DNA from: Actinomycetota bacterium | Lineage (GTDB): Bacteria > Actinomycetota > JAHEXW01 | Length of the DNA stretch: 64,000 nt | Assembly: GCA_025355855.1 (NCBI GenBank) | Contig: JANXYU010000003.1 | Location: 88,713-152,712, forward strand | Direction: 5' to 3' | Shown: positions 10,691-57,093 of the stretch, piece after piece | Position numbering within the stretch: the stretch's first letter is position 1 | Layout: each line of letters opens with the position of its first letter | The notes under the pieces: model-generated | Seen by the model: the letters and a program-made list of their open reading frames with translations, nothing else | What the model was told of the DNA's origin: nothing | Databases searched by the model: none | Position numbers and translations under genes: made by a program

Positions 10691-10790
10691 TGCTTTAAAG
10701 CGCTAAAGCGGCGCTACTTCAGCGCTACGTAGCGCTGAAGTGTTTCGTGCACAGGACTCACTTCACCGCTATGTAGCGGTGAAGTGGAAC
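10691..10790. repeat. palindromic repeat cluster (CTTTAAAG and AGCGCT cores; perfect 24-bp palindrome CTTCAGCGCTACGTAGCGCTGAAG at 10717..10740; variant CTTCACCGCTATGTAGCGGTGAAG at 10761..10784)
   Basis: Read directly. Lies between convergent wecB and the nfnB-like gene. The same family recurs at 28398-28520, 36127-36156 and 49578-49601. Confidence 0.8.
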
Positions 10791-28397: not shown

Positions 28398-28520
28398 TGC
28401 TTTAGCGCTTTAAAGCACTACAGCGCTCCAGCGTAGGGATTCGATTACTTCAGCGCTACGTAGCGGTGAAGCGTCCAACGTGACGGTTCGATTACTTCAG
28501 CGCTACGTAGCGGTGAAGTA
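28398..28520. repeat. palindromic repeat cluster: GCTTTAGCGCTTTAAAGCACTACAGCGCT followed by two tandem ~47-bp units, each containing the near-palindrome CTTCAGCGCTACGTAGCGGTGAAG
   Basis: Read directly; 24-mers at 28448..28471 and 28495..28518; lies between the cooC/acsF-like gene and nikR. Confidence 0.8.
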
Positions 28521-40843: not shown

Positions 40844-43564
40844 TCACTTTTGCGATATCTTCGCGGCTGCGACCTTTAGCTCCGGGATCTTCGCTACCGG
40901 ATCTAACGCCGGATTCGTGACCGCATTGGCCGCCGCCTCCGCGTAGTGGAACGGCATATATATAACCCCAACCGGCACATCCTCCGTTAGCCGCGCCTTC
41001 GCCGTCACGCTGCCGCGCCTCGTCGTAACCGTCACCGACCGCTTGTTCTTCACCCCGTACTTCTTCGCGTCAGCCGGATTGATGTCGACCCTGGCCTCCG
41101 GTTCGATCTCGTTTAAGCCGTCGACCTTCCTGGTCATCGTGCCTGTGTGCCATTGAGCCAGGTAGCGACCGGTGGTCAAGATTAGCGGATACTTGGCGTC
41201 TGTGACTTCCGCAGGCGGTTTGTAATCGATGGCGTGGAATTTGCCTTTGCCGCGGGCGAACGTTTCCGTGTGCAGGATTGGCGTGCCCGGATGGCCGGGC
41301 GTCGGGCAGGGCCAGTGAATGCCGCAAACTTCGATCCGATGATGGCTGATGCCGCCGTACGCGGGTGTGACCGCCGCGATCTCTTCGAAGATGGCAGCCG
41401 ATGAATGGTAGTTCATTTTGTAACCGAACTTGGACGACACCAGACCGATGATCTTCCAATCGCTCAAAGCCTCGCCAGGCGGTTGGATGGCCTTACGGAC
41501 CGGTTGGACGCGCCGTTCGGTGCTGGTGAACGTACCGGACTTCTCCGCGAAGGTCGCGGCCGGCAGGACGACGTCGGCCAGCCGCGCCGTTTCTGTCAAG
41601 AAGATATCCTGGACGACCAGGAAGTCTAGGCCTTTCAGACCGGCGATAATGTGGGCCTGGTCCGGCTCGGACAAAATGGGGTTCTCGCCCATGATGTACA
41701 TGGCGCGAATGCCGCCCTTGGCCGCCGGTGTGCCGGCCGCTCTAGTCATCTCCGTGGCCGTTAACCCGGGTTTTTTCGGCAACTTCCGGCCCCAGGCCGC
41801 CTCAAATGATTTTCGAACACCGACATCGGCGACACTTTGGTAGCCCGGGTAAACGTTCGGCAGGGCTCCCATATCGCAGGCGCCCTGGACGTTGTTCTGG
41901 CCGCGCAGGGGGTTGACGCCCATACCAGGTTGGCCGATGTTCCCGGTCATCATCGCCAGGTTGGCTAGAGTCATGACGTTGTCCACGCCGGTCGTGTGCT
42001 GAGTGATGCCCATGGCGTAGATGATGGTCGCTTTGTCCGCGCCAGCGTAGATCTCCGCCGCGCGAACGATGTCGGCCGCCGGAATGCCGGTGATTGATTC
42101 AACGTAGTCGGGCGTGTATTTTTCGACCATGGCCACGACGGCCGCGAAGCCCTCCGTCCTCTCTTTGATAAACGATTTATCGGCCAGGCCGATATCCAAA
42201 ATGACGTGCATTAAACCATTGATGAGCGCGACGTCGGTGCCCGGTTTCTGAGACAGCCACATGTCGGCGTATTTTACCAACGGGATCCGGCGCGGTTCCG
42301 CCACAATCAAACGGGCGTCTTTGTTCTTTACAGAGTCGATGATGTTCAAGCCCAGAATGGGGTGGGCCTCGGTCGTGTTCGAGCCAATGACCAGAATGAC
42401 GTCAGCCTCCCCGATGTCCTCCAGGGAATTCGTCATCGCCCCGCTGCCAAACGCCGCGGCCAGACCGGCCACCGTTGGGCTGTGTCACAATCGAGCGCAG
42501 TTGTCGATGTTGTTCGTACCGACCCCCGCGCGGGCAAACTTTTGCATCAGGTAATTCTCTTCGTTGGTACATTTGCTGGAGGAAAGGAAGCCGATGGCGT
42601 CGGCCCCGTATTCCTGTTTGGTTCTCTTCAGTCCGGCGGCGACGGCCGCGATGGCTTCGTTCCACGACGCCGGCACCAGCTCCCCGTCCTTGCGTATTAA
42701 TGGGGTGATCAGACGGTCCGGGCTGTTCACGAAACCGTAGCCGAAGCGGCCTTTCACGCACAGGTCGCCCTTGTTGACCGGAGAATCCTCCCGCGAGGTG
42801 ACGCGCACGATGTGCTGGCCGTCGGTTTCCAAGACTATGGCACAGCCAACGCCGCAATACGGACAGGTGGTGACCGTTTTCTTGAGGTCTTTGCTGCGGC
42901 CCCGGTAGCGGCTGGGCTTCTCAGTCAACGCGCCGACGGGGCAGACCGAGACACAGCGCCCGCATTGGACGCATTCGGTTTCCGGTAGGGGACGGTTAAG
43001 GGCGGACGTGACCATCGTGTCAAAGCCGCGTCCCATGTAGTCGATGACCTCGCAGAACTGGAGCTCCTGACACGCCTGAGCGCAGCGGTAACATTTCACG
43101 CATTTTTCGAAATCCCGGACAATGAACGGGTTGGCGGTATCGATGGGATAACGGTTGCGCCGCCCCCGGAAACGGGAATCGGCGACCTGATATTCATAAG
43201 CCAGGTCCTGCAGTTTACAATGTCCGCTCTGTTCGCACGTCAGACAATCGCCGGGGTGATCGGAGAGCAACAGCTCCAGCACCAGTCGGCGGGCGGCCAC
43301 GGCGCGGTCGGTATGGGTCAGCACCCGCATGCCCGATTCGGCGGGACGGGCACAAGCCGCGATCAATGGACGGCCCGGACCCTCGCCCTCCAGCTCGACG
43401 ACGCAAAGACGGCACGCGCCGGTCGGCGTGAGATGCCGGTGGTTGCACAGATGAGGAATATCGACCTTGGCCTTATGGGCGGCTTCCATGATGGACGCGC
43501 CGCGATGAATCTTTACGGGCACGTCGTTAATGAACAGGGAAACTGTATCGGACTTTCTAGCCAC
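40844..43564 (-). CDS. fdhA: selenocysteine-containing formate dehydrogenase catalytic subunit (FdhF/FdhA-like; N-terminal 2Fe-2S/4Fe-4S ferredoxin modules + Mo/W-bis-PGD domain), in-frame UGA at 42487..42485
   Basis: Two track ORFs (42485..43738 and 40844..42472) are in the same frame, separated by TGA + HSPT. The joined sequence ...[30 protein letters not shown] matches the E. coli FdhF Sec140 context NCARV-U-HGPSVAGL. The likely start is GTG 43564 with a GGGAGG RBS, overlapping the NuoF-like stop by 8 nt. Confidence 0.85.
42445..42487 (-). promoter_or_regulatory. bacterial SECIS element directly 3' of the fdhA UGA
   Basis: mRNA UGA CAC AGC CCA ACG GUG GCC GGU CUG GCC GCG; the GCC-GGUCU-GGC hairpin with GGUC apical loop is at the same register as the E. 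coli fdhF SECIS (UGA CAC GGC CCA UCG GUU GCA GGU CUG CAC). Confidence 0.65.
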
Positions 43565-45287
43565 GGTTGGCCTCCCGATTCGCGGGCCGCCGCTTGCAAA
43601 TGCCATGCGGGCATTTCTTGTGTTCGATATGGGCGACGTATTCATCGCGGAAATATCGGATGGTGGACAAGACCGGGTTGGGCGCGTTTTGGCCCAGGCC
43701 GCAGAGAGACGTGTCGCGCACCACGGCCGCCGTCTCAATCAACAGGTCGATGTCTTCAATTTTCCCGTTGCCGCCGGCGATGCGTTCCAAAATCTCCAGC
43801 ATGCGGGTAGTGCCGACGCGGCAGGGGGTGCATTTGCCGCACGATTCGGCCGCCGAAAACGCCAGAAAATAGCGGGCGATATCGACCATACAGGCGGTTT
43901 CGTCGAGAACGATGACGCCGCCGCTGCCCATGATGGCCCCGACTTTGCTCAAGGTGTCGTAGGTCACGGACAGATCCAGAAATTCGGCCGGGATACAGCC
44001 GCCGGACGGGCCGCCCATCTGAACCGCTTTGAATTCCTTACCGTCGATGATGCCGCCACCCAGGTCGAAGATGAGCTCACGCAGGGTGATGCCCATCGGG
44101 ACCTCGACCAGTCCGGTGTTGTTCAGCTTACCAGCCAGGCTGAAGACCTTTGTGCCGCGCGAGGTACCGGAGCCCATGTCGTTGTAGACATCGGCGCCGC
44201 GGCCGATGATAACAGGCACGTTGGCCAGGGTCTCAACGTTATTGATGCAGGTTGGTTGGCCCCAAAGTCCGGCTACCGCCGGATAGGGCGGGCGGGGGCG
44301 GGGTGTGCCGCGTTTGCCCTCCAAACTGGCGATCAGCGCGGTTTCTTCCCCGCAGACGAACGCGCCGGCGCCTTCCTTGACCGTAATGTCGAAGTCGAAG
44401 CCGGAGCCCAAAATGTTCTGGCCGAGCAGGCCATATTTTCGCGCCTGGTCGATGGCCAGGGTGAGATGCTCGACGGCGATGGGATATTCCGCGCGCACAT
44501 AGATGTAGCCTTCGGACGCGCCGATGGCGAAGCCCGCAATGATCATGCCTTCGATGACGGCGTGCGGATCGCCCTCCATGACGCCGCGATCCATAAACGC
44601 GCCGGGGTCGCCCTCGTCGCCATTGCAGATGAGATATTTCGGTTTGGATCTTTCCTTGCGCGCCAGGCGCCACTTCAAAAAGGTCGGGAAACCGGCGCCG
44701 CCGCGGCCGCGCAGGCCGGACGCCTCCAGTTCGTTTATGATGCCGTTGGGGGTCAACCTTATCAGGGCGCGCGCCGCCGCCGCGTAGCCGCCAGTCCGGA
44801 TGTAGGCGTCGAGGGAGCGCGGGTCGACGCGACCAAGGTTGCGCAACACGCTGCGTTCCTGCGCCTTATAGAACGGGACTTCGGCGGCTTGTGTTATCGG
44901 CTGGCCGGTGGCCGGGTCTTTGTAGGCCAGGCGGTTAATGGGTTTTTTGTTTAATATGGTCTTCTGCACTATCTCCGGAACGTCGGCCGGTTTGACCTGG
45001 CCGTAGAAGATGCTGACTGGATCGATCTCGATGACGGGCGCCTGGGCGCAGAAACCGTGGCAGCCTGTTTCAACGACTTCGATGTTCTTGCGCTCGGCCG
45101 CCGGGAGCCTGGCGATTTCTTTGGCGAGCGCCGCGGAGACCGCGTCGGCGCCTGACGCCCGGCAACCGGTCATGCAGACGCGGACCCGCGTCTTATTCGG
45201 GTCGTAAGCCGTCTGCAAACGGTTACGCAAAGCGTTGAGGTCAGTCCGCGTATTTAGTTTTTGCGTGTTCGGTACGTTCTTTGGCAC
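43557..45287 (-). CDS. NuoF/HydB-like NAD(P)H-binding flavoprotein subunit with N-terminal thioredoxin-like [2Fe-2S] and C-terminal 2x[4Fe-4S] (formate dehydrogenase beta / HylB-like)
   Basis: GRGGAGFPT, FMN/NADH motifs, C-terminal CGKCTPCR...CGLGQ; GTG start with AGGAGC RBS. Confidence 0.85.
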   Translation of the reverse strand: MPKNVPNTQKLNTRTDLNALRNRLQTAYDPNKTRVRVCMTGCRASGADAVSAALAKEIARLPAAERKNIEVVETGCHGFCAQAPVIEIDPVSIFYGQVKPADVPEIVQKTILNKKPINRLAYKDPATGQPITQAAEVPFYKAQERSVLRNLGRVDPRSLDAYIRTGGYAAAARALIRLTPNGIINELEASGLRGRGGAGFPTFLKWRLARKERSKPKYLICNGDEGDPGAFMDRGVMEGDPHAVIEGMIIAGFAIGASEGYIYVRAEYPIAVEHLTLAIDQARKYGLLGQNILGSGFDFDITVKEGAGAFVCGEETALIASLEGKRGTPRPRPPYPAVAGLWGQPTCINNVETLANVPVIIGRGADVYNDMGSGTSRGTKVFSLAGKLNNTGLVEVPMGITLRELIFDLGGGIIDGKEFKAVQMGGPSGGCIPAEFLDLSVTYDTLSKVGAIMGSGGVIVLDETACMVDIARYFLAFSAAESCGKCTPCRVGTTRMLEILERIAGGNGKIEDIDLLIETAAVVRDTSLCGLGQNAPNPVLSTIRYFRDEYVAHIEHKKCPHGICKRRPANREANRG

Positions 45288-45550
45288 CTAGCTCCTAAAG
45301 TGTGTCTCCCGATAAGAAAGACTATATCTGGCGGGTCCACCCCCACCTTTCATCCTCCCCCTTCCCGTAGGGGGAGGAAAAAACTAAACCAAAGCTCTAA
45401 AACTGTCCACCTCCTAGGAGGAGGAAATAAATATATGTACTTCCCGTTAGGGAATCGATTGCACTTCTTCTAGCGTCCCCCAAGGAGAGGCAAATATCTA
45501 GTCGCTCGTCTTAAATAATTCGACGCGCGGGTGAATCGAATACACTGTCC

Positions 45551-45644
45551 GGCGGGTGGCGCGACTGGGGGGACCCCCAGATCGCGCGCAGGCCACCGAT
45601 CGGCGAGCACGATATGGGGGAAGTCTGTCGCGACAGGACCCGCC
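45551..45644. repeat. ~90-bp TIR-bounded structured repeat (copy A): GGCGGGTG...CTGGGGGGACCCCCAG...GACAGGACCCGCC
   Basis: Read directly; aligns with copy B (46920..47010) and partial copy C (50677..50715); inside the 400-bp nuoE/nuoF spacer. Confidence 0.7.
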
Positions 45645-45690
45645 GGATTTCACTCCCGCACCTGCTCGTCACTCTTTAAGAACGCGAGCG

Positions 45691-46113
45691 TCACTTGCTC
45701 TTTCTGTACTTATCCAGCACTTCCACAGCCTTCTCCGCCGTTAGCTTCCCGTAATACTCGCCGTCCACCGTCATGACCGGGGCCAGGAAACAAGAGCCAA
45801 GGCAGGCGACGGTGTCGAGCGTGAATAGTCGGTCGGGCGTGGTCTCGCCGGGTTCGATGCCCAGCTCCGTTCGCAACCGCTTCAGCACGTCGGTACCGCC
45901 TTTGACGTGGCAAGCGGTGCCGTCGCAGACGGTGACGCGGTGCTTGCCGACCGGTTTCAGCCGGAACTGGGAATAAAAGGTCGCCACCGAATAGATCTCG
46001 GAGAGCGGCACGCCCAATTCTTTGCTGACTCGCTCAATTTTGGCCGCGGGCAGGTAGCCTTCCTTGGCTTGAACCTTTTGAAGTGTGGTGATCAGCTGCC
46101 CGCGTTCGCTCAC
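45691..46113 (-). CDS. NuoE/HydC-like [2Fe-2S] thioredoxin-fold subunit
   Basis: CDGTACHVKG...CLGSC Cys pattern of the 24-kDa subunit family. Confidence 0.85.
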   Translation of the reverse strand: MSERGQLITTLQKVQAKEGYLPAAKIERVSKELGVPLSEIYSVATFYSQFRLKPVGKHRVTVCDGTACHVKGGTDVLKRLRTELGIEPGETTPDRLFTLDTVACLGSCFLAPVMTVDGEYYGKLTAEKAVEVLDKYRKSK

Positions 46114-46115
46114 AT

Positions 46116-46889
46116 CTAATCCAGGTAAGAGTCGGCGTAGAGGATATTGCCATTAAAGACGTCGACGGTTTTGACCGTGTTCATCAATTCCCTGTCGGTC
46201 GGGTCCATGATCGCCGCGTCCAGACCGAGCGCCATCAGGCTGGATAGCATCGTGCTATCCAGCAGCGTCTTGATTGGCCCGGTTAGACCGTTGGAGGTGT
46301 TGGACAGACCGACAACTGTCTTTAGCGGTGGATCGTTCAGTTGGCGAAACAGCTTGATGGCCTCAAAAACCTGGAGCGCCTGTTCCTGCGCAACCTTGAC
46401 GGGGAGAATCAGGGGGTCGAAGTAGATACGCTCGACGTCAACGCCGTAGCCCATGGCGTTGGTCATGATGTCGACAGCGATCGCGGCGCGTTCGTTGGCG
46501 TCGCGCGGGATGCCGTTCATCATAGTAAGGCCGATGATATCGGCGTCATATTTGGCCGCTAACGGCAGATAGGCTTCCATCTTCTCCGGCAGACCGTTGG
46601 TCGAGTTGATCAGCGCCGTGCCTTTGTGGACCTTGAGCCCCGCTTCGATGGCGGCTGGGTTCATCGAATCCAGGCAGCAACGAATATCCATAGCCTCTTG
46701 GATGGTCTGGACCAGCCAGGCCATGCGCTCCGGCCCGTCTTTGGCCTGACCGATGTTGATGTCCAACATATTGGCGCCGGCGTCGACCTGCGCCTGGGCC
46801 ATAGCCAGAACCGGACCCGCGTCGCGGTCCTTCATGGCCTGCCCGATCTTCGTGTTGATAACGTTTACCTTTTCACCGATTACTAACAT
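46116..46889 (-). CDS. acsE: methyl-tetrahydrofolate:corrinoid iron-sulfur protein methyltransferase (MeTr)
   Basis: Pterin-binding TIM barrel MLVIGEKVNVINTKIGQAMKDRD...MLDINIGQ; 257 aa. Confidence 0.85.
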   Translation of the reverse strand: MLVIGEKVNVINTKIGQAMKDRDAGPVLAMAQAQVDAGANMLDINIGQAKDGPERMAWLVQTIQEAMDIRCCLDSMNPAAIEAGLKVHKGTALINSTNGLPEKMEAYLPLAAKYDADIIGLTMMNGIPRDANERAAIAVDIMTNAMGYGVDVERIYFDPLILPVKVAQEQALQVFEAIKLFRQLNDPPLKTVVGLSNTSNGLTGPIKTLLDSTMLSSLMALGLDAAIMDPTDRELMNTVKTVDVFNGNILYADSYLD

Positions 46890-46919
46890 ATTATTCTCCT
46901 TTTTTTATATATAGAACAT

Positions 46920-47010
46920 GAGCGGGTGACGTCGGTGGGGGACCCCCGCAGCGCGCGCAGGCCACCAGCCAACGAGCACGTAGTAGGGGTGACCGATGGC
47001 AGGACCCGCC
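46920..47010. repeat. ~90-bp TIR-bounded structured repeat (copy B), between metF and acsE
   Basis: GAGCGGGTGACGTCGGTGGGGGACCCCCGCAGCGCGCGCAGGCCACC...GGCAGGACCCGCC; ~70% identical to copy A with a conserved GGGGGACCCCC hairpin and GCGGGT/ACCCGC termini. Confidence 0.7.
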
Positions 47011-47017
47011 TTGTCGT

Positions 47018-47950
47018 CTACCCCATAGGCCTTGGCAGAAGACCGGCGGCCTTGACGATATCCGGCACCGCTTCTTCCCATTCTATGGCCATGACGTGTA
47101 CCCCGGCGATGCCGGGAATCGTTTTCATCTTCTCTATCAGCTCGACCGCGATGGCGATGCCTTCCTCTTTGGGCTCTCGCCCCTCATCTTTGGCCGCTGT
47201 CATCCGCGCGATATATTCATCAGGCACATCCATACCGGGTACGTTGTTTTTCATATACTTGGCCATACCCGCGCTCTTCAACGGAGATATGCCGGCCATA
47301 ATGTAGACTTTTTTGTCTAAGCCCAGCGCTCGGACCTCTTCCATCCACTTCTCAAACTTCGGCACGTTGTAGACGATCTGGGTCTGAATGAATTGGGCCC
47401 CGGCCGCGACTTTCTTGGCCAAACGCCTGGCGCGCAGCTCGAATGGATCCGCGAACGGATTCTCCGCCGCGCCGATGAATAAGTCGGGTGCGACCGCCAT
47501 TTCCTGCCCGCCCAGCAATTTCTTATCATCCCGCATGGCTTTCACCATTTGCAGCAGCTGGATAGAGTCGAGGTCCCAGACGCCCTTGGCCTGGGGATGA
47601 TCGCCGAATTTCTGGTGGTCGCCGGTCAGGCAGAGGAGGTTCTTCGCGCCCAGCGCCGCCGCGCCCAGAATATCGGCCTGCATCGCCAGCCGGTTACGGT
47701 CGCGGCAGGTCATCTGGACAACCGGCTCCAAACCCTCATCTATCAGGAGCTTTGCCGCCGCGATGCTGGACATCCGCACGATAGCGGTCTGGTTATCGGT
47801 GATATTGACCGCGTCGGATTGGCCTTTTAATAATTTGGCTTTCTCGATGACAACCGAGGCGTCGGCGTCCCGGGGCGGACCCAGCTCTGACGTCACGGCA
47901 AATTTGCCTGATTCTAAGACCCTTTGTAAATTACTCAAGGTAAACCTCAC
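47018..47950 (-). CDS. metF: 5,10-methylenetetrahydrofolate reductase
   Basis: MRFTLSNLQRVLESGKFAVTSELGPP...; 310 aa MTHFR TIM barrel. Confidence 0.85.
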   Translation of the reverse strand: MRFTLSNLQRVLESGKFAVTSELGPPRDADASVVIEKAKLLKGQSDAVNITDNQTAIVRMSSIAAAKLLIDEGLEPVVQMTCRDRNRLAMQADILGAAALGAKNLLCLTGDHQKFGDHPQAKGVWDLDSIQLLQMVKAMRDDKKLLGGQEMAVAPDLFIGAAENPFADPFELRARRLAKKVAAGAQFIQTQIVYNVPKFEKWMEEVRALGLDKKVYIMAGISPLKSAGMAKYMKNNVPGMDVPDEYIARMTAAKDEGREPKEEGIAIAVELIEKMKTIPGIAGVHVMAIEWEEAVPDIVKAAGLLPRPMG

Positions 47951-48072
47951 TTTTTCGTTAGCCGCTAGAACTTTGTAGCTGCCAGTCTTTATGACCGGCA
48001 GTCGAGCGCCGACCTAAAGGACGGCGCCTACCCGTTGTCGCGGAGGATTCACCGTATAATTTCTACTCTTTA

Positions 48073-48735
48073 CTATTTACTTTCTAGCCTTCTGGGTCCG
48101 CCGTGCCAAGATGGACGCCAGTCGCGCGCCGTTGTGACCTCGTCCCATGTCGCACCCAATTTAAGTTCGTTCAGTTTGTCGAAGATCAGTTGCCAGCCGC
48201 AACCGATGTCCGGCGAGACCTCGCATTTGCCGTTGACCGACCCGCCGCAGGGGCCGTTCAACATCGACTTGGAGCAGCGGACAATGGGGCAGATACCGCC
48301 GGTCTCTCCCAGAATGCAATCGCCGCAGGCGCCGCAATATTCGATGAACAGCCGGTCGGGTGAGTGGCTCCCGAGCATCATCGTGTTGACGCCGGGCAGA
48401 ACCCGTTTGCCCGGAAACTCGGCCGCTAGGGTCTGGACCCCGACCCCGCACGACAGAGAGAGCACGGCATCCGCCGCCTTGACCGCGTCGGCCATCTCTC
48501 GCGTATACTCCGGCTCGCATTGACGCAGCGGCGTGAGCTGGGTAATTTCTAGAGTCCAGCCGTCTGATGTGGCTTTCAGTTCCAAGGCCGCCGTCAGTTC
48601 GGCGACTTCCTTCTCGCCACCGGCGAAGGAGATGGTGACACAGGTGCCGCAGCCGCCGAGCAATAATTTCTTGACGTCATTGGCGACGATCATGGCATAT
48701 ATTTCGTCTATCGGTTTGCGTTGTCCGACGATCAT
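48073..48735 (-). CDS. metV: MetV (Cys-rich MTHFR-associated small subunit)
   Basis: 220 aa with clustered Cys (CGTC, CGVGV, CGACGDCILGETGGICPIVRC...CGGSVNGKC); directly upstream of metF in the direction of transcription. Confidence 0.7.
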   Translation of the reverse strand: MIVGQRKPIDEIYAMIVANDVKKLLLGGCGTCVTISFAGGEKEVAELTAALELKATSDGWTLEITQLTPLRQCEPEYTREMADAVKAADAVLSLSCGVGVQTLAAEFPGKRVLPGVNTMMLGSHSPDRLFIEYCGACGDCILGETGGICPIVRCSKSMLNGPCGGSVNGKCEVSPDIGCGWQLIFDKLNELKLGATWDEVTTARDWRPSWHGGPRRLESK

Positions 48736-48742
48736 TTGCGCT

Positions 48743-50665
48743 TCACTCCTTGATGGCGATCATGGCCGGTTCGAGACCCAGTTCGGTAAGTGTGGCTTGG
48801 ACGGATGCGACGCGGGCGATCGTCCGGTCGCGGGCAGTGCCGAAGAAACAACCTTCCTCGGGACACAGCGACACGTTCACCTTAGCCGCGCCGGCCCGCA
48901 GTGCTTCCAGCATCAATAGTTCGCTGACCTGACCGATACACATCGCGGGGACAATCGTGTGACCTTGCGGGAGCTCGTCAGCATCGTTATAAAGACGGTT
49001 CATGCAGTAGAAATCGACCTGTTTCGCGGCCGCCGCGGCGGCAACGGCCTCGTCAAGCAGACGTTCCTCTTGACCGCGCCGGAGTGTAATGGCGCCGGCC
49101 GGACATTCGGTGGCGCACAGACCGCACGCCTGGCATTCCGCTGTATCAATGACAGCGACATTGTCGGCGCCGATCTTCGGAATCTCAAAAGGACAGACGC
49201 GCACGCACGTTAAACAGGCAATACATTTTTCCGGGTCAACTACCGCGCCGGACAGGCAAGCCATGCAGCGCAAACCCTCACGCGCCGCCTCGACCTCTGT
49301 TAAACCCGGCTCGAACAGCTCGAAGTCCCGGACGCGATCGGCGGACGGGCGCGTCATGCCGGTGCGGCGCTGGCGGGCCGGCACGAGCGGACGCATCCGC
49401 TCGGGCAAGTCGGCTAACACGGCCGGCTCGTAAACGGCAGCCGGTTTGCCGGTTAGAAACGCGGCGACGGCCGCGGCGACAACATGGCCGTTCTGTACCG
49501 CACCGATGGCGCTCCCTGGCCCGGTCGCGAACTCCCCTGCCATGAAGACATCCCGCGGTTGTTCTTTCGTTATGTCAACTTCAGCGCTACGTAGCGCTGA
49601 AGTGTCCCGGCCTTGGCCGATAGAGACAATAACGGTCTCACCGGCTACTGTCAAGAATTTGTCGGGGACGAATTGCGGGTCGAAACGGCCTTCTTCGTTG
49701 AATACGCGTGACACGGCCTGACAGGTAAGACCCTCGACCGAGGCGCCGGAGCTGACTAGTTTTGATGGACCGAGGCAGCAGTTCAGGTTGACACCTTCGG
49801 CGGCCGCCTCTTCGATCTCCCAATCATGCGCTGGCATTTTATCGCGCGACTCCAGGCAAACCAGGTTTACCTCCTTGGCGCCCAACCGGACAGCGGTCCG
49901 GGCAACGTCAATGGCAACGTTGCCGCCGCCGACCACGATGACCCTACTTTTGAGCGCCGGCGGATTCCCCGCCTTGACGGCTTTCAAAAACGGGATCGCG
50001 GTGTAGACGTTATCGCCTTCTGTCGGGAAAACGGGCAGGCTGCGGGAAAAAGGCAAGCCGGTCGCGATAATGACTCCGTCATTATCGGCTCTTAATTCGT
50101 CGATACTAAAATCTTTGCCAAGCTCTTGACCATATTTGATTTTAACCCCGGTCGCAGCGACTTCATTGATATCACAGTCAAGTGCCGTGTCTGGGAGGCG
50201 ATAGTTTGGGATGGTAAGGCGAAGCATACCGCCGGCTTTGGGCTCGCGTTCGAAAACGGTGACCTTGTGGCCGGCCGCGACCAGGTCTTGGGCGGCGGTA
50301 AGGCCCGCGGGCCCGGCCCCGATGATCGCGATACGTTTGGCCTCTCCACCCAGATTCCTTCTTTGCATGTGGAACTGTCCGTTCGACGCTGACTCAGGAT
50401 CTGGCCCGCAGGCTTCGCCGAATGCCGCTGCGGCTCGTTTAAGTTCCATGATGGAGATCGGCTGGTCGACTGAGGCGCGGCGGCAGTTCTGCTCGCACGG
50501 GCGGAAGCAGATATAGCCGCAGCTATTGGAGAATGGATTGGTCAGGCGCGCGACGTCGTAGGCTTCGGTGAAACGGCCGAGCGCCGTCAGGGCCACGTAG
50601 CCCTGAACGTCGGTAAATGCCGGACAAGCCGCCTGACACGGCGGCACAAAATCACGCATAAACAC
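48743..50665 (-). CDS. GltD/NfnB-like FAD-NAD(P) flavoprotein fused to a 2x[4Fe-4S] ferredoxin and an MvhD/FlpD-like domain (MetFV-associated electron-transfer subunit)
   Basis: N-terminal FVPPCQAACPAFTDVQGY...CGYICFRPCEQNC, Rossmann motifs IAIIGAGPAGL and VIVVGGGNVAID, then CIACLTCVRVCPF/CQACGLCATECP and a Cys-rich tail. Confidence 0.6.
   Translation of the reverse strand: MFMRDFVPPCQAACPAFTDVQGYVALTALGRFTEAYDVARLTNPFSNSCGYICFRPCEQNCRRASVDQPISIMELKRAAAAFGEACGPDPESASNGQFHMQRRNLGGEAKRIAIIGAGPAGLTAAQDLVAAGHKVTVFEREPKAGGMLRLTIPNYRLPDTALDCDINEVAATGVKIKYGQELGKDFSIDELRADNDGVIIATGLPFSRSLPVFPTEGDNVYTAIPFLKAVKAGNPPALKSRVIVVGGGNVAIDVARTAVRLGAKEVNLVCLESRDKMPAHDWEIEEAAAEGVNLNCCLGPSKLVSSGASVEGLTCQAVSRVFNEEGRFDPQFVPDKFLTVAGETVIVSIGQGRDTSALRSAEVDITKEQPRDVFMAGEFATGPGSAIGAVQNGHVVAAAVAAFLTGKPAAVYEPAVLADLPERMRPLVPARQRRTGMTRPSADRVRDFELFEPGLTEVEAAREGLRCMACLSGAVVDPEKCIACLTCVRVCPFEIPKIGADNVAVIDTAECQACGLCATECPAGAITLRRGQEERLLDEAVAAAAAAKQVDFYCMNRLYNDADELPQGHTIVPAMCIGQVSELLMLEALRAGAAKVNVSLCPEEGCFFGTARDRTIARVASVQATLTELGLEPAMIAIKE
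49578..49601. repeat. perfect 24-bp palindrome CTTCAGCGCTACGTAGCGCTGAAG embedded in-frame in the 48743..50665 CDS (encodes TSALRSAE)
   Basis: Identical to the intergenic palindrome at 10717..10740. Confidence 0.85.
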
Positions 50666-50676
50666 TCCGTATATTT

Positions 50677-50715
50677 GCTCCCCGCTAGGGGAGTCAAGTT
50701 CATGACAGGACCCGC
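50677..50715. repeat. partial copy C of the TIR element (CTCCCCGCTAGGGGAG hairpin + GACAGGACCCGCC) in the acsC/flavoprotein intergenic spacer
   Basis: Read directly. Confidence 0.55.
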
Positions 50716-50727
50716 CAGACTATCTTC

Positions 50728-52077
50728 CTACGACGCCCAGGTTTTTAGGAACGGTGGGATGTCGGCTGCTTCGCGCGGCCCGACCTCTACATTCCAGCCT
50801 TCCAGTTCGTCTTCCAGCTCGCCGCTCATCGTGGCCAAATAGCCCGGGATGACCAGCTTGCGATGCTTAACCTGCTCTTCGATGCCGACGCCCTTGATAA
50901 ACGGGACAATCTTTTCAGGCACGAACTTGCCGGCCGCCCAGCTGGTCATGACAGACAAGCCTTCCGTGTCCATGACGCACAGCCAGGCCGGGACGCGGCT
51001 GGCCTCGACCTCGCCCGACACGATGAAATAGGTCAGGCTGAAATTGGAGGTGATAAGCACCGGCGAATCCGCCGTCGGGTTGCCGATCGGGTATATGCCC
51101 GGCTTAACCTGCATCGGCCGCTGGGGATCGGTGTAAATATTCTGCCGCAGCACGTACAGCGGCAGGGCGCGCGCGGCGTCCAAATCGCTCAGCATGATAA
51201 CGCTACCGTACTTGCCGACATAAAGTCCGGCGTAGACGGCTTCCATCATTTTGTCGTCCGTTTCCTCATTCGGGAAGACAATAATCGGGAAACCGAGTTC
51301 TTTGACCTTTTTGTTCAGCGCAGCGCGGCGGATGTAGACCAGCCGTTCTAGAGTATCCTTGGGGTTACGCGTACCGGGATCCAGAACAATGTCCTTAACG
51401 CCGGCGGCCATGATCTTTTTGACCAGGTCGACCAACGCGTCCAAGTCGCCGGTGCCGCAAACAGCGAGCGGCGCCTTGTGGGCCAGTGCGAGGGCCGCCA
51501 TCGCTTCGTAGTTAGCCGCGGTCGCCGCGTAAATCAGCGGCGCGGTCTCGCCAGCCGCCTTCAGGCCCGCTTCCATTTCCGCTGGGTCGCCGCACATTAA
51601 GACCATAGGCTGCGTTGTCGCCGCTTTGACTTTTTCAATTAGCGCGACAAATTTCGCGGTGTCGCCGGATAAAGATTTCACGCCGACCAAGCCGGCTTTC
51701 AAGTCTTGTTCGACCCGGACGAACCGGCTTTCGTTAGTCTGTTTGAGCAGCCCGTCGACGGTCGCCGCGTCCATGCCGTCATCGATGACAGCCGCGAAGA
51801 CGCACGGGTTGAAGAATGTCTTCTCGTGACGGTAGAGCACCAGCTCCCCGCCGACCTTGACCGCGTCATCGCCCACGCCGATGGTGACGGCGCGAATCGG
51901 CGGCGCGGACGCCTCGCTCAAAGCCGAGGCCGCGTCCTCCGACAAATGCGGACAACCAGCCAGTTCCGCTTGGCCGGCCGCGATCTTCATCGCGAAAGCC
52001 AGGCAGGTCGGTACGCCGCAGTCCCCGCAGTTGGTCTTGGGCAGTTGTTTGAAAATATCTATTCCGGTTAAAGCCAT
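50728..52077 (-). CDS. acsC: corrinoid iron-sulfur protein large subunit (CFeSP gamma)
   Basis: MALTGIDIFKQLPKTNCGDCGVPTCLAFAMKIA; 449 aa. Confidence 0.9.
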   Translation of the reverse strand: MALTGIDIFKQLPKTNCGDCGVPTCLAFAMKIAAGQAELAGCPHLSEDAASALSEASAPPIRAVTIGVGDDAVKVGGELVLYRHEKTFFNPCVFAAVIDDGMDAATVDGLLKQTNESRFVRVEQDLKAGLVGVKSLSGDTAKFVALIEKVKAATTQPMVLMCGDPAEMEAGLKAAGETAPLIYAATAANYEAMAALALAHKAPLAVCGTGDLDALVDLVKKIMAAGVKDIVLDPGTRNPKDTLERLVYIRRAALNKKVKELGFPIIVFPNEETDDKMMEAVYAGLYVGKYGSVIMLSDLDAARALPLYVLRQNIYTDPQRPMQVKPGIYPIGNPTADSPVLITSNFSLTYFIVSGEVEASRVPAWLCVMDTEGLSVMTSWAAGKFVPEKIVPFIKGVGIEEQVKHRKLVIPGYLATMSGELEDELEGWNVEVGPREAADIPPFLKTWAS

Positions 52078-52165: not shown

Positions 52166-54358
52166 TTAGCCAAGTAGTGAATCCATTTCGAGCGCCGGGT
52201 GACCGACCTTGGCCATATACTCCATGACCTCTTCTTCGGTCGTCCCGATTGTCTCATCGGCGATCATGTCGACAAAGTCCGGCAGGCCGAGCGCTTCGCT
52301 ACGCTTCTTAAGCTGGCCGGCCAATGCTTCCTTTAGTTCCTTGGGCATCCAGACGATGCGCTTGAAACCACCTTCGGCGGCGATGAATTTCCCGCTCGTA
52401 ATGTACTGCCGACCCACTCCCAAAAATCCGGGAGTCTGCGCGCCGCCGCCGACCGAGCCGGCCAGGCTGGAGAACTTCATGCCCACCGGGGTCTCGCCGG
52501 TATGCTCGCGGTTAACCACCATGACGCCGTTGGCGATGGGCAGAATGGCCACGACACACTCGAAGCAACCGCAGCTGGTCTCGGGATCCTCCATTATGGA
52601 GTAGGCGTTGACCTGCTGGACACTGTTGTTTGATTTAGCCCGCACTAGTTCGTTGACGCCGACCCACTGACCGCGGCGTTCGTCGATGGTCTCGCCCTTG
52701 ATGATCGGCTGGTTGGCGCCGGTCGGATTGATCTCGTGCGCCGCCTTCGCGTCTAACCAGTTATACGCGCCGCACAAACCCAGCCGCTCCGGCGAAATCA
52801 CGCAGACATGGTTCGGCGCGAAGCTCTGGCAGAGCGTGCAGGAATAGAAGGTGTCAACGCTCTCGTCGATTAAGCCGGCGACCCGTTCGTCACGTGCGAT
52901 AAAAGCCGCGCGCGCTTCCTCCAGGACTTCCTTCATCTTGTCAGCGTCGGTATAGAGCTTGATTTGGATCTTGTCGACGATGGCCGGGAAGTCGTCCATT
53001 AGCTTGGCCTTTAGAATCTCTCCGAAGTGCTCGATTTTGAAGCCCTTTTCATGGGCGCTTTTGCTGATGCGCATCCAGTTCATATCGCGCTGGCCCATAT
53101 GCCAGATGCCTTCGGCGCCGTTGACTAGGTGGTGCAGCTGGCGCTCCAGAACAGGCTCAAAGTCGGACTGCATCTTCCGTCCGGCGACCTCGATCAATAT
53201 ACCCAACGGGTAGGCCTTGCCCTCTTCCATCTGGTCGATCTCCGGCCCGATAACCTCGATCTTTCCATTGTCGATATCGTCCATATCGCGCATGCGCAAA
53301 TACTCAAACGCAGGCGACTTCTGTCCGCCGAACTCGACAAACATGGCTTCCTTGCGGATGCGTTCACCCTCGAAGGCGGAGCCGAACGACACCGGGATCG
53401 GGATTTTGGTGATTTTAATCTTTATGCCGCGCACCTCGACCGCCGTGTCGACGATCTTGTCCAGCGGCACATTAGACACAACGTGTTCATAGGTCGTGAT
53501 ACCGGTCGGCAGAATCTGCGGGATATCGGTGTTGGCGATGACCGGGAAGCCGAAGTTGATGGCGCCCGCGGCTGTGGCATATTTCTCATCGTCTACGTCG
53601 CCCAAGGCGATGACGAAAGCAAACACACGATTTTTGTTGTACATTAGGATCTCGCGAGCTTCCTTCATTCCGCCCGGAGTAATACCGCCGAAGGTCATAG
53701 CGGCTCGCGCGGCGACGCCCAGCGCGTATACCGCCGCCGAGATGTCCCTGCCGAACGGCACTAAATAGACGTCCCAGCCCATCTCGACGCCGGCTTCGTT
53801 TAACTGGTCGGCCATGGTTTTACCGTCCGTCTCGCCCGCCATGAACAGCAAAATGTTGCGTTCGCGCAGTTCGGTCGCTAGTTTTACAGCTTCCTCAGTG
53901 GTCGGCGCGGCGCCGACAACGGCGGCGAAACCCGGCATGGACCCGTCAACGAGCTTGATGCCTTGGGTCCGGACAATAACGTCGTCGGTCGCGCCCAGCC
54001 AGATACCTTCAACGGGGTTGGGTCCCATGACGTATTTCATGGCTTCGATGATTTCCTCGCTCAACAGCGCCGCGATACCTGAGTCCAGCGTGTTGCCCAG
54101 ATAAGGCAGCCAAGCGTCCTCAGCCGGGATGTCCGGCAACATCGATTTGGCTTTTGCCAGGACCGGCTGGATGTCACCCAACGTTTTAACCTTGATGGCC
54201 AGCAGCGCATAGGCGACCGGCAGATAATAAGCGGTGTCCGGAAAAGATACAGGTTGGTCCGCGCCTTTGGCTGCCAGCGCCGCGTTGTAGGCGGCTTCCG
54301 CTTTGTTATAGAGAGAGTGCGCCCCGCGGATAGCGGACGAGGCAATCAGTTTTGACAT
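52166..54358 (-). CDS. acsB: acetyl-CoA synthase (A-cluster subunit)
   Basis: 730 aa; SCTLCQSFAPNHVCVISPERLGLCGAYNWLD and CGCFEC Ni-Ni-FeS ligand motifs. Confidence 0.9.
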   Translation of the reverse strand: MSKLIASSAIRGAHSLYNKAEAAYNAALAAKGADQPVSFPDTAYYLPVAYALLAIKVKTLGDIQPVLAKAKSMLPDIPAEDAWLPYLGNTLDSGIAALLSEEIIEAMKYVMGPNPVEGIWLGATDDVIVRTQGIKLVDGSMPGFAAVVGAAPTTEEAVKLATELRERNILLFMAGETDGKTMADQLNEAGVEMGWDVYLVPFGRDISAAVYALGVAARAAMTFGGITPGGMKEAREILMYNKNRVFAFVIALGDVDDEKYATAAGAINFGFPVIANTDIPQILPTGITTYEHVVSNVPLDKIVDTAVEVRGIKIKITKIPIPVSFGSAFEGERIRKEAMFVEFGGQKSPAFEYLRMRDMDDIDNGKIEVIGPEIDQMEEGKAYPLGILIEVAGRKMQSDFEPVLERQLHHLVNGAEGIWHMGQRDMNWMRISKSAHEKGFKIEHFGEILKAKLMDDFPAIVDKIQIKLYTDADKMKEVLEEARAAFIARDERVAGLIDESVDTFYSCTLCQSFAPNHVCVISPERLGLCGAYNWLDAKAAHEINPTGANQPIIKGETIDERRGQWVGVNELVRAKSNNSVQQVNAYSIMEDPETSCGCFECVVAILPIANGVMVVNREHTGETPVGMKFSSLAGSVGGGAQTPGFLGVGRQYITSGKFIAAEGGFKRIVWMPKELKEALAGQLKKRSEALGLPDFVDMIADETIGTTEEEVMEYMAKVGHPALEMDSLLG

Positions 54359-54403: not shown

Positions 54404-55348
54404 TTAGTTTGTAGCGCCGGTTAGGGCGGCGACAAATTGCCGCGTCAGCTCGACCGCTTTCGGGTGCCGCATGACCAGGATGTTGGAGCCGGCCATGATC
54501 AGCGCGGTCGCCGTCAGTGCCTCCCATAAAACACCCCTGGTCTCCGCGTCGCCCCACGCGGGTTCGTCGGCTTCCGACGTTTTGACTTCTTTGGCTTTCC
54601 AAACCTCGCGACCGATCTGGTTGATCATCGGCATCTGGGTCATTGAATCATTCTGGGTCATGGCCGCCAAACGCAGCCGCTCCATGACGGAGTAGCAATA
54701 TTCCAGCCCGTAGCCCAGAGCGCCCGTCGTGGGATCGATGATGACCCGTTCGGGGGCCAGACCGAGCTGGGTGATCAGGATGTTCAGCTGTTTGGCGATA
54801 TTGACGTCGATGGGGGAATGGGGCGCCGCCAGGTGGTCGAAACCGAGCGCGGCGGCGGCCACAGTTTTGTAGTTTTCCTCCTCGACCGGACCGATCAAAG
54901 CGCGTTTGCCCTGACAAGCCTCGGCCGCCTTGGGCATCACTTCGGCGTCTTTGTCCGCGTTAGCGGTGCCGTAGACGATCAACGGAATCTTGATGGCGTC
55001 TGCCACGGCTTTCACAATCGGCGCGATGTCCGCCCCGTTGCGGTCGCCGGTCGACGGATTTGTCGAAGCCAGGTTAAGACATATCATGTCCGCCTTGTAT
55101 TCGTCCTGGCACTTCAACGCCCACTTGACTGGGTCGTCCAGGACGTCGGCGTAAGGGGCGATCGCGGCCTCCGGCCAGTCTTCCGGTTTGGTGTCGTAGA
55201 CTTCCAACGCGATGACTGGTTTGTTGGGAGCCGCGCCCTCGAACATGTACAACGGCAAAGAGGTTTCGCCGCCCACCGTTACGGCCGTGTCTCCCAGACC
55301 GATCGTCGCTTCACGTATCTTGCCGTTATATGTTTCCTTTACTTCCAT
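54404..55348 (-). CDS. acsD: corrinoid iron-sulfur protein small subunit (CFeSP delta)
   Basis: 314-aa TIM barrel partner of AcsC; MEVKETYNGKIREATIGLGD... Confidence 0.85.
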   Translation of the reverse strand: MEVKETYNGKIREATIGLGDTAVTVGGETSLPLYMFEGAAPNKPVIALEVYDTKPEDWPEAAIAPYADVLDDPVKWALKCQDEYKADMICLNLASTNPSTGDRNGADIAPIVKAVADAIKIPLIVYGTANADKDAEVMPKAAEACQGKRALIGPVEEENYKTVAAAALGFDHLAAPHSPIDVNIAKQLNILITQLGLAPERVIIDPTTGALGYGLEYCYSVMERLRLAAMTQNDSMTQMPMINQIGREVWKAKEVKTSEADEPAWGDAETRGVLWEALTATALIMAGSNILVMRHPKAVELTRQFVAALTGATN

Positions 55349-55471
55349 TAGACCCTCCCACTGCGAGCAATCAGCTCGCCTTGCGCGTTGCCTTCGTAGC
55401 TGCCGGTCTTTAGACCGGCAGTCGAGCGCCGACCTAAAGGTTGGCGCCTACATCTCTACACTCGTACGTGT

Positions 55472-56323
55472 CTAGCCCGCTGCTCTCTTTGCCGCCTCAA
55501 GAGTATTTACCATCAGCATGGCAATGGTCATGACCCCGACCCCGCCAGGCACAGGCGTGATGGCGCCGACCTTATCGAACACGCCGTCATAGTCGACGTC
55601 TCCGACAACCTTGCCTTCCTCGTTGCGGTTGATGCCGGCGTCCACGACAGCGGCGCCCGCTTTTACCATGTCTGCGGTAATCATTTTCGGCTGTCCGATG
55701 CCAACGACCAAAATGTCTGCCCTACCGGTATGAGCCGCCAGGTCCTTTGTCTTCGAGTGACAGATGGTAACGGTCGCGTTGTTCTGCAGGAGCAGGACCG
55801 CCGCCGGTTTACCGACAATGTTGCTGCGGCCAACGATAACGGCGTCCTTGCCGGCGATCTCCACGCCGCTGCGCTGCAACAGCACAATTATGCCGTGCGG
55901 TGTGCACGGCAGAAAACATTCCTTGCCGATCAACATATTGCCCACGTTGACGGGGGTAAAGCCATCGACATCCTTCTTAACCTCGATAGCGTCGATTACC
56001 TTGTCTTCATCGATGTGCTTGGGCAAAGGCAGCTGAACCAACAGACCGTGGATCTTCGGGTCGTCGTTCAATCGGTAAACCAGACTCAGCAGCTCTTCTT
56101 CTGAGACGTCCGCCGGTAATTCGTGTTTTTCCGAATAGATACCTGTCTCCGCGCAGGCCTTTTCCTTATTCCGGACATAGATGGTGCTGCCGGGATCCTC
56201 GCCGACGATGATAACGGCCAAGCCTGGCGTAATGCCGGACCCCGCCTTTAGCTGTTCAACGCCCGCGGCGACCTCGGCCTTTATTTCAGCCGAAATCTTC
56301 CTACCGTCAATTACTGTGGTCAT
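55472..56323 (-). CDS. folD: bifunctional methylene-THF dehydrogenase/methenyl-THF cyclohydrolase
   Basis: IIVGEDPGSTIYVRNKEKA, LPLPKHIDE, VVGRSNIVGKP. Confidence 0.9.
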   Translation of the reverse strand: MTTVIDGRKISAEIKAEVAAGVEQLKAGSGITPGLAVIIVGEDPGSTIYVRNKEKACAETGIYSEKHELPADVSEEELLSLVYRLNDDPKIHGLLVQLPLPKHIDEDKVIDAIEVKKDVDGFTPVNVGNMLIGKECFLPCTPHGIIVLLQRSGVEIAGKDAVIVGRSNIVGKPAAVLLLQNNATVTICHSKTKDLAAHTGRADILVVGIGQPKMITADMVKAGAAVVDAGINRNEEGKVVGDVDYDGVFDKVGAITPVPGGVGVMTIAMLMVNTLEAAKRAAG

Positions 56324-56331
56324 AAATCCTC

Positions 56332-57093
56332 CTATGTGATTCTTTCCAGTATTTCTGCTGCTGCCGCCATGGCCGGGGAGTCGGCCGGCAAATCTACAAA
56401 AGCGCCGCCCGCTATATCCACTGCCTCGACCCCGGCGTCATATGGTACGGTCCCGATAAGCTCCAGGCCTGTCCGCGCGACTGCGTCTTGGACGGCCGGG
56501 CTCAAACCCACAGCCCCCGCTGGCACCCGGCCGATCACCAGATACATCCGGCCGACGTTCATGTCCTCTTCCGAAGCCATCTCCGCGATGCGCCCAGCGG
56601 TCATCACGCCGCGCACCGTCGGGTCCGAACAAACTAACAGGATGTCGGCGCCCCGGCTCGTCCGGCGGGACAAGTGTTCCATTCCCGCCTCGTTGTCCAT
56701 GACGACAAACGGGTAGTTATCAGCCAGCACGTCAATATATTTACGCAGCACCGAATTGACGTAGCAATAGCAGCCGCTGCCTTCCGGCCGCCCCATAACC
56801 AGCAAATCGAAACCGTCGCCCTCGGTCACCGCTTCCTGGACCTTAAGTTCGAGGTATGTTTCTTTCGGCACGCCCGTCGGAATCTGATCGATGTTCTTCC
56901 GGGTAGTTTCCCGCAAGTCGCCGATCGTCGTCTCGGGCACGACGCCCAACGTTTCATGCAGTGTCGCGTTAGCGTCGGCGTCGATGGCCAGCACCGGCTT
57001 CTTCCCCGTCTTAAGCAAATTGGCAATCAATAGTCCGGCCAAGGTCGTCTTGCCCGTACCGCCTTTACCGCTGACGGCGATCTTAACCGTCAC
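56332..57093 (-). CDS. cooC: CODH/ACS nickel-insertion ATPase CooC
   Basis: VKIAVSGKGGTGKTTLAGL; CYC motif GCYCYVNS. Confidence 0.85.
   Translation of the reverse strand: MTVKIAVSGKGGTGKTTLAGLLIANLLKTGKKPVLAIDADANATLHETLGVVPETTIGDLRETTRKNIDQIPTGVPKETYLELKVQEAVTEGDGFDLLVMGRPEGSGCYCYVNSVLRKYIDVLADNYPFVVMDNEAGMEHLSRRTSRGADILLVCSDPTVRGVMTAGRIAEMASEEDMNVGRMYLVIGRVPAGAVGLSPAVQDAVARTGLELIGTVPYDAGVEAVDIAGGAFVDLPADSPAMAAAAEILERIT

Follow-up and report, generated by a model that had tools for sequence, protein, structure and literature searches.

The minus strand of a 64-kb stretch of an Actinomycetota bacterial contig (JANXYU010000003.1; the whole stretch is referred to here as the window) carries a Wood-Ljungdahl operon that contains short structured repeats in three of its intercistronic spacers. 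An original prediction, made from the letters of the window, described these repeats as a single family and offered several explanations for them: miniature transposable elements with inverted repeats (MITEs), determinants of RNA processing or stability, and binding sites for a regulator that coordinates subunit stoichiometry. In this study, we examine the structure of the repeats, their presence in related operons and their occurrence in other genomes and metagenomes. The results lead us to regard two of the repeats, copies A and B, and probably the third, C, as members of an uncatalogued family of small mobile palindromes of the MITE, REPIN and Rickettsia palindromic element (RPE) kind, carried in the operon as co-transcribed passengers. 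We consider this reading likely, if well short of secure. The family appears to be undescribed, yet the kind of element is already known.

Repeats in the spacers of a Wood-Ljungdahl operon

The window holds two full copies of the element and one fragment, all inside 5.2 kb:

45552-45644, minus strand: copy A, full element with helices P1-P4 (covariance model 99.7 bits), in the 403-nt spacer between the nuoE-like and nuoF-like genes
45525-45661, minus strand: copy A together with an outer helix P0 (GUGCGGGAGUGAA / UUCACCCGCGC), fold of -71.8 kcal/mol
46922-47010, minus strand: copy B, full element (covariance model 97.2 bits), in the 128-nt metF/acsE spacer
50677-50716, minus strand: C, probable truncated relic, found through an exact 11-mer, in the acsC/hdrA-like spacer

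Copies A and B lie where they had been predicted, to within 2 nt, and they are homologous, being 70% identical across an alignment of 93 nt (E = 6e-9 when compared within the window). Their RNA folds reach -56.3 kcal/mol (z = -4.6) for A and -41.9 kcal/mol for B. Across the 64 kb, the covariance model gives its next best score, 17.6 bits, to A itself read on the opposite strand, and all other matches score 12.2 bits or less. A recent local duplication giving rise to A and B is ruled out because A is nearer to a copy from a groundwater contig (81%) than to B (70%). The outer helix P0 is also common to A and the groundwater copy, in which the alignment runs past P1 on both sides to form a unit of ~140 nt.

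The assignment of C to the same family stands in part. C shares with A and B the exact 11-mer GGCGGGTCCTG, extended to 13 nt with A, but it represents only the 5' arm of the element: the 5' strand of P1, the CCUG bulge, a P2-like 5' strand and a short CCCC-UAGC-GGGG hairpin, with the P4 core and the entire 3' half absent. In the window the 11-mer is found at three sites, each on the minus strand within a Wood-Ljungdahl operon spacer, and by our arithmetic the chance expectation of one more exact copy is ~128,000/4^11 = 0.03. The covariance-model search of the window missed C, which is the top sub-threshold match of an nhmmer search (model positions 8-37) with an E of 1.4 that is not significant alone. 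Judged by its sequence, C is probably a truncated relic of the hairpin family.

Two descriptions of the element's architecture can be refined. The termini GCGGGT/ACCCGC are indeed common to A and B and make up the basal helix P1; to call the repeats bounded by terminal inverted repeats is loosely right, as the whole element is one interrupted palindrome without visible target-site duplication. The string GGGGGACCCCC, previously taken for a conserved hairpin, is conserved but forms no hairpin alone because the loop would measure 1 nt. The partner of its G-run in the consensus fold is a C-run some distance away (helix P3), and the neighbouring C-run is unpaired.

The genes of the operon, assigned by Pfam, are given below in the order of transcription:

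59051-60754, minus strand: fhs
57090-59012, minus strand: RACo
56332-57093, minus strand: cooC
55472-56323, minus strand: folD
54404-55348, minus strand: acsD
52166-54358, minus strand: acsB
50728-52077, minus strand: acsC
48743-50659, minus strand: hdrA/mvhD-like flavoprotein gene
48073-48735, minus strand: metV
47018-47950, minus strand: metF
46116-46889, minus strand: acsE
45691-46113, minus strand: nuoE-like gene
43557-45287, minus strand: nuoF-like gene

These are followed by one further gene:

40844-43738, minus strand: formate dehydrogenase gene, its open reading frame (ORF) split by a selenocysteine codon

The in-frame TGA of the formate dehydrogenase gene (42485-42487, minus strand) lies in the motif CARL-U-HSP, the usual selenocysteine site, and the annotations of relatives break the gene at the same point. 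The best taxon-named AcsE homologues belong to Actinomycetota metagenome-assembled genomes (MAGs), at 63-67% identity, and a Logan contig from SRR22198310 reproduces the region with just three substitutions.

Each repeat lies between co-directional minus-strand genes, as had been noted, and the Pfam assignments agree with the pairs named: nuoE-like/nuoF-like for A, metF/acsE for B, and acsC and the hdrA/mvhD-like flavoprotein gene for C. The elements start shortly after the upstream stop codon (46 nt for A, 7 nt for B and 11 nt for C). From the end of the element to the next start codon there are 264 nt at A and 32 nt at B, and the hairpin of C is 17 nt from the ATG of the hdrA-like gene (50659). 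The downstream ribosome-binding sites are not enclosed in the hairpins, that of acsE lying outside the hairpin of copy B. A consensus scan at A, B and C detected no terminator-like and no promoter-like features; the sequence beyond P1 is not U-rich, so that the GC-rich hairpin followed by a U-tract that marks an intrinsic terminator is absent at all three.

The spacer that holds A has other features of its own. Near its nuoF end, the 12-mer TCTGGCGGGTCC (45327-45338, plus strand) is the same as the start of C, inverted; it is mostly ancestral spacer sequence, present in a diverged version at the same place in one related operon (L011), and its kinship to the family is uncertain. A 21-codon ORF, MKGGGGPARYSLSYRETHFRS (45288-45353, minus strand), has its UAG stop immediately before the GTG start codon of the nuoF-like gene, an arrangement that could reflect translational coupling or chance. 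An anti-Shine-Dalgarno-like hairpin (CCUCCCCC...GGGGGAGG) followed by a purine-rich run is found at 45354-45377 of the window and in two relatives (L011, 3326-3379; L009, 4327-4605). The spacer that it occupies differs among these three related operons, and the hairpin could be a further mobile one or a translational device.

Distribution and shared structure of the family

The window was compared with seven related Wood-Ljungdahl operons of the same gene order, whose AcsE proteins are 70-91% identical (L006, L009/L010, L011, L048, L053, L055). The covariance model found no copy of the element in any of them. The 11-mer GGCGGGTCCTG is likewise absent from the relatives' operons, and an independent function for it was rejected on that ground. 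At the nuoE|nuoF junction, the genes of the relatives overlap or are separated by 7, 61 or 79 nt, as compared to 403 nt in the window; at the metF|acsE junction, the spacers measure 12, 15, 54, 96, 241 or 338 nt and are of unrelated content, as compared to 128 nt in the window. The junctions that hold the element are thus empty in all seven relatives, the insertion polymorphism that is expected of a MITE. Across the eight otherwise collinear operons, the metF|acsE junction varies from 12 to 338 nt with unrelated content, and is an insertion hot spot.

Outside the operon, the family is known from few places. Eleven copies including A and B score 45-103 bits with the covariance model, and the nine that lie outside the window come from a groundwater contig, a soil contig, a Coxiellaceae MAG and the E2 genes of four Solirubrobacterales-like contigs. 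When 185,579 species genomes were scanned with a strict pattern, one true homologue emerged, in the Coxiellaceae MAG (L004), plus three chance matches in high-GC coding sequence; this yield is a lower bound, since the pattern demanded GTGGCC at a position later seen to vary. A three-block pattern applied to 241 million metagenome records retrieved three true homologues, from groundwater (L012), from soil (L013) and from a contig of 70% GC (L014), to which the covariance model added a second copy in L014 and, within orthologous genes on three related contigs (L057-L059), another four. Two pattern scans of IMG/VR gave 0 and 33 matches, and all 33 failed the covariance model. Rfam 15 had no match in the window at gathering score, and at E <= 10 no Rfam family overlapped any copy in the window or at four other loci. 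A full-text literature search for the core strings brought up nothing relevant, only unrelated primers and the like.

Copies may follow a gene, separate a divergent pair of genes, or be embedded in frame in a coding sequence, in one orientation or the other. No consistent class of gene lies downstream of them, the neighbours being acsE, the nuoF-like gene, a hypothetical gene, an MFS transporter gene and the interior of an E2 gene. The groundwater copy is in sense orientation 22 nt past the stop codon of a hypothetical gene with a 238-aa ORF. In the Coxiellaceae MAG, the element lies between an MFS transporter gene and a hypothetical gene, as an island of 71% GC in the loop of an AT-rich palindrome with 38-nt arms, which suggests that it was inserted into a hairpin loop. 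Perfect or near-perfect intergenic palindromes, with arms of 32 and 38 nt, occur in this MAG at 2946-3020 and 5599-5769.

The copies inside coding sequence are found in genes for the E2 acyltransferase of pyruvate dehydrogenase, at these positions on the Solirubrobacterales-like contigs:

L014, 458-1807: E2 gene
L057, 1672-2952: E2 gene
L058, 10001-11266: E2 gene
L059, 10001-11260: E2 gene

The L014 gene encodes an intact protein of 449 aa with one copy in each of its two inter-domain linkers, between Pfam domains; the two copies are opposite in orientation, and both are translated through in frame. In a protein alignment of ten close homologues, the linker-2 copy is present in 2/10 as an extra segment of ~16-25 residues, a second instance of insertion polymorphism. 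The linker-1 copy is widely shared and is kept by the orthologues in L057-L059. In all ten aligned homologues, AGPV (GCGGGTCCTGTC) opens the first linker and PPA (CCACCCGCG) closes it; these correspond to the two ends of the element, and by this measure the whole first linker seems to derive from an old copy. As the linker-1 copy is widely shared, with its end motifs kept even in diverged homologues, it has outlived speciation as protein-coding sequence. The linkers of homologues with an empty site are too diverged to fix the exact insertion boundaries. That the element might encode a conserved peptide was rejected because the indels in its loop are not multiples of three.

All 11 copies fold into a common, irregular hairpin of four helices, which is GC-rich and ~85-105 nt in size. 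With the mRNA strand of the Wood-Ljungdahl operon taken as the sense strand, its parts are as follows:

P1, basal helix: GCGGGU/ACCCGC, lengthened by co-varying outer pairs; a 6-9 bp inverted repeat at the ends of the element
5' bulge: CCUG, invariant, facing a single C
P2: 6-9 bp, complementary in spite of a sequence that changes with nearly every copy
P3: C-run paired with G-run, then on the 3' side an unpaired U (or A) and a second C-run
P4: NN-GUGC/GCGC-NN, with a U.G pair in 11/11 copies
Loop: UCG...GGCCU, with an optional internal hairpin of 0-10 nt

The loop sequence is relaxed in the four E2 linker-1 copies. Elsewhere several unpaired bases are invariant or nearly so across the 11 copies, which represent at least five lineages. 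In the model-fitted alignment, 91% of the pair cells are standard pairs and 10/27 pairs have changed on both sides; no column shuffle out of 500 matched the observed paired fraction or covariation score, and sliding the partner columns by 1-3 reduced pairing to 36-56%. An independent run of RNAalifold on a MAFFT alignment returned the same helices. The alignment has 12 G.U cells as against 7 A.C cells, a weak sign that it is the sense strand that folds. P1 constitutes the terminal inverted repeat of a classical MITE, though it is at the same time the base of a continuous interrupted palindrome.

Conservation of unpaired bases within a co-varying hairpin brings to mind an autonomous structured RNA that spreads horizontally and is as yet undescribed, either a self-cleaving ribozyme class or a protein-recruiting module. 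Its core would be the CCUG bulge, the GUGC/GCGC helix with the U.G pair, the UCG...GGCCU loop and the G-run/C-run, and within the operon such an RNA would cleave the polycistronic transcript, or tag it, at two or three set junctions. The (near-)invariance of the bulge, loop, G-run/C-run and U.G pair while P1, P2 and P4 co-vary is consistent with such an RNA, as are the rarity of the family, with few copies in scattered contexts as in bacterial ribozyme classes, and the lack of an Rfam match. We nevertheless think it very unlikely. The copies share no consistent gene association, one has been kept as a protein linker through speciation and another is antisense to its host gene. The fold, moreover, is a simple interrupted palindrome without a supported pseudoknot or junction, and a transposase recognition site would conserve unpaired bases equally well. 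Among known RNAs, HDV-like, twister and hairpin ribozymes were rejected on strand order, conserved bases and the absence of an Rfam match, and the tetrahydrofolate (THF) and ZTP riboswitches, considered on account of the folate and one-carbon content of the operon, were rejected in the absence of a model match and of a consistent gene association.

As duplex DNA, the P3 region is a palindrome, GGGGG(T/A)CCCCC, that could be a site for a dimeric protein with GGGTCC as half-site, whether the target of a recombinase or the site of a nucleoid or regulatory protein. This palindrome is intact in 11/11 copies, including the E2 linker-1 copies in which the central T is replaced by A; GGGTCC occurs twice in each element, and the Coxiellaceae copy is centred in a larger palindrome. 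The compensatory changes in P1, P2 and P4, however, indicate a folded single strand. Neither a recombinase nor an integrase was detected near any copy in scans that covered 40 of the ~64 ORFs of the window and the neighbours of the other copies, and the integron attC consensus GTTRRRY is absent. Recognition as a duplex therefore strikes us as improbable. An integron attC site proper (R''/R' sites RYYYAAC ... GTTRRRY) was rejected, its core sites being absent from the ends of the element, as was a Tn3-type minimal element, the GGGG terminus being found in the Coxiellaceae copy only.

Mobility and the operon transcript

A selfish mobile element is the preferred explanation because the element is present or absent in otherwise similar loci, is scattered over contexts and phyla, occurs in both orientations, is tolerated in protein linkers and has its hairpin maintained by compensatory change. 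The original prediction had included this option, which is favoured by the absence of the element from seven related operons, its unrelated contexts elsewhere and the opposite orientations of two copies within one coding sequence. The dedicated regulator that it proposed as an alternative fares worse: other copies are found in both orientations and outside operon spacers, the very distribution that the prediction had set against it. Control of subunit stoichiometry in particular is unattractive because A parts the partner genes nuoE and nuoF and because the operons of relatives are without the 11-mer.

The mobile element that we favour would be selfish DNA that spreads as MITEs, REPINs and RPEs do. 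Its hairpin, in what is probably a single-stranded DNA form, and the invariant unpaired bases would be recognised by a transposase or recombinase acting in trans, and insertions would persist only where they do little harm, as in intercistronic spacers and flexible protein linkers. The copies in the operon would be co-transcribed and would fold, just past metF and nuoE, into mRNA stem-loops of very high stability (-42 to -72 kcal/mol). Such stem-loops are expected to stop 3'-to-5' exonucleases or to draw a double-strand-specific RNase, for example RNase III. The relative stability of operon segments could shift as a result, as a side effect and not as a conserved design. REPs in operon spacers can reportedly stabilise upstream mRNA, a result attributed to Newbury et al. 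1987. Transcripts of Correia elements are cut by RNase III and ERIC elements alter RNase E-dependent mRNA decay (PMC10969869). By analogy, it is plausible that the hairpins incidentally affect how the operon mRNA decays or is processed.

Several observations weigh against mobility. The flanks of seven copies have no direct repeat of 2-9 bp that would represent a target-site duplication, although the copies may be too old to have kept one. No transposase or parent insertion sequence, RAYT or integrase was detected by Pfam in the 40 window ORFs scanned (the other 24 lie between 12 and 39 kb and near 63.3 kb), and scans of the genes neighbouring the other copies revealed no transposase, recombinase or integrase adjoining them. 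A BLAST search with three copies against plasmid and phage collections gave no match. The family also looks rare and of low copy number, unlike a typical MITE or REPIN that amplifies; the unpaired bases conserved across phyla and the invariant U.G pair fit a functional RNA equally well; and 5/6 independent copies with a known host gene are in sense orientation, which is a weak bias.

The orientation of the copies bears most directly on the possibility that they are, or have turned into, selected cis-acting mRNA structures, which would govern segmental stability or processing and so set how much the metF, acsE-nuoE and nuoF-fdhA segments yield relative to one another. All copies in the operon are in the mRNA sense and start 7-46 nt past a stop codon, and the groundwater copy is likewise in sense past a stop codon. 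The very stable hairpins (-42 to -72 kcal/mol), the free ribosome-binding sites that follow and the excess of G.U over A.C cells (12 to 7) on the sense strand would all suit such a role, and REP, ERIC and Correia elements do influence mRNA fate (PMC10969869). Selection for this role would, however, be hard to reconcile with the lack of the element in all seven related operons, with the separation by A of the partner genes nuoE and nuoF, with the absence of terminator-like or promoter-like features at the elements, and with the antisense copies inside coding sequence; two or three copies on the same strand are statistically meaningless. We judge it unlikely.

If the copies are indeed mobile elements, the structured repeats in this operon do not belong to a regulatory layer that is conserved in acetogenesis, and they are unfit for inferring control of subunit stoichiometry because they are lineage-specific insertions. 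Should the hairpins change mRNA decay after all, the operon would provide a natural experiment in which selfish insertions re-partition expression in a long metabolic operon. The covariance model could help to find the mobilising enzyme by co-occurrence.

Relation to other palindromic repeats

The window contains other palindromic repeats. A second repeat family is found on the minus strand at 47975-48031 and 55396-55451, in the metV/metF and folD/acsD spacers; each copy pairs two hairpins within 56-57 nt and has GTAG...CTAC, the REP/REPIN signature, at its ends, and the cores are 95% identical. In addition, a 25-nt perfect palindrome, ACTTCAGCGCTACGTAGCGCTGAAG, occurs at 10716-10740, 10760-10784, 28447-28471, 28494-28518 and 49578-49602. 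It is paired in two intergenic regions and lies once in frame in the hdrA-like gene (TSALRSAEV), with no change in length relative to the orthologues. A related palindrome occupies the hdrA/metV spacer of one relative (L006). The permissive sites of this genome have evidently been colonised by several palindromic repeat families.

Among elements described elsewhere, MIRUs (mycobacterial interspersed repetitive units) are reported by Supply et al. 1997 to be actinobacterial repeats of 46-101 bp that lie in intercistronic operon spacers and are oriented with transcription. They differ from the present family in being tandem direct repeats with small coupling ORFs and not hairpins, and there is no sequence similarity between the two.

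REP and REPIN sequences are closer in form, as they are extragenic hairpin elements of ~90-110 nt whose stems are kept by compensatory change (PMC3116915). The hairpin family, however, ends in GCGGGU...ACCCGC without the terminal GTAG/CTAC signature, and whereas REPINs are abundant and mostly vertical in a lineage, it is rare and extends across phyla. Correia (CREE) and ERIC elements are further MITE-like palindromes transcribed along with the genes next to them (PMC10969869). They have long terminal inverted repeats and target duplications (TA in the case of Correia), and they reach tens to hundreds of copies per genome within one genus or family, none of which was observed for the present family.

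The best parallel is provided by the RPEs, palindromic repeats of ~100-150 bp that lie in intergenic regions and also go in frame into unrelated genes, where they are tolerated as surface or linker peptides (PMC10969869). Their counterpart in the hairpin family is the set of E2 linker copies, which are inserted in frame without disrupting the protein. The two differ in that there is no sequence relation between them, that the hairpin family is GC-rich, apparently of low copy number and distributed over Actinomycetota-like lineages and one Coxiellaceae MAG, and that it shows clear compensatory maintenance of its hairpin. The hairpin family is thus a compact, sequence-defined element, common to Actinomycetota-like bacteria and a Coxiellaceae genome and able to join a protein, and would represent a second, GC-rich case of the phenomenon known from Rickettsia palindromic elements.

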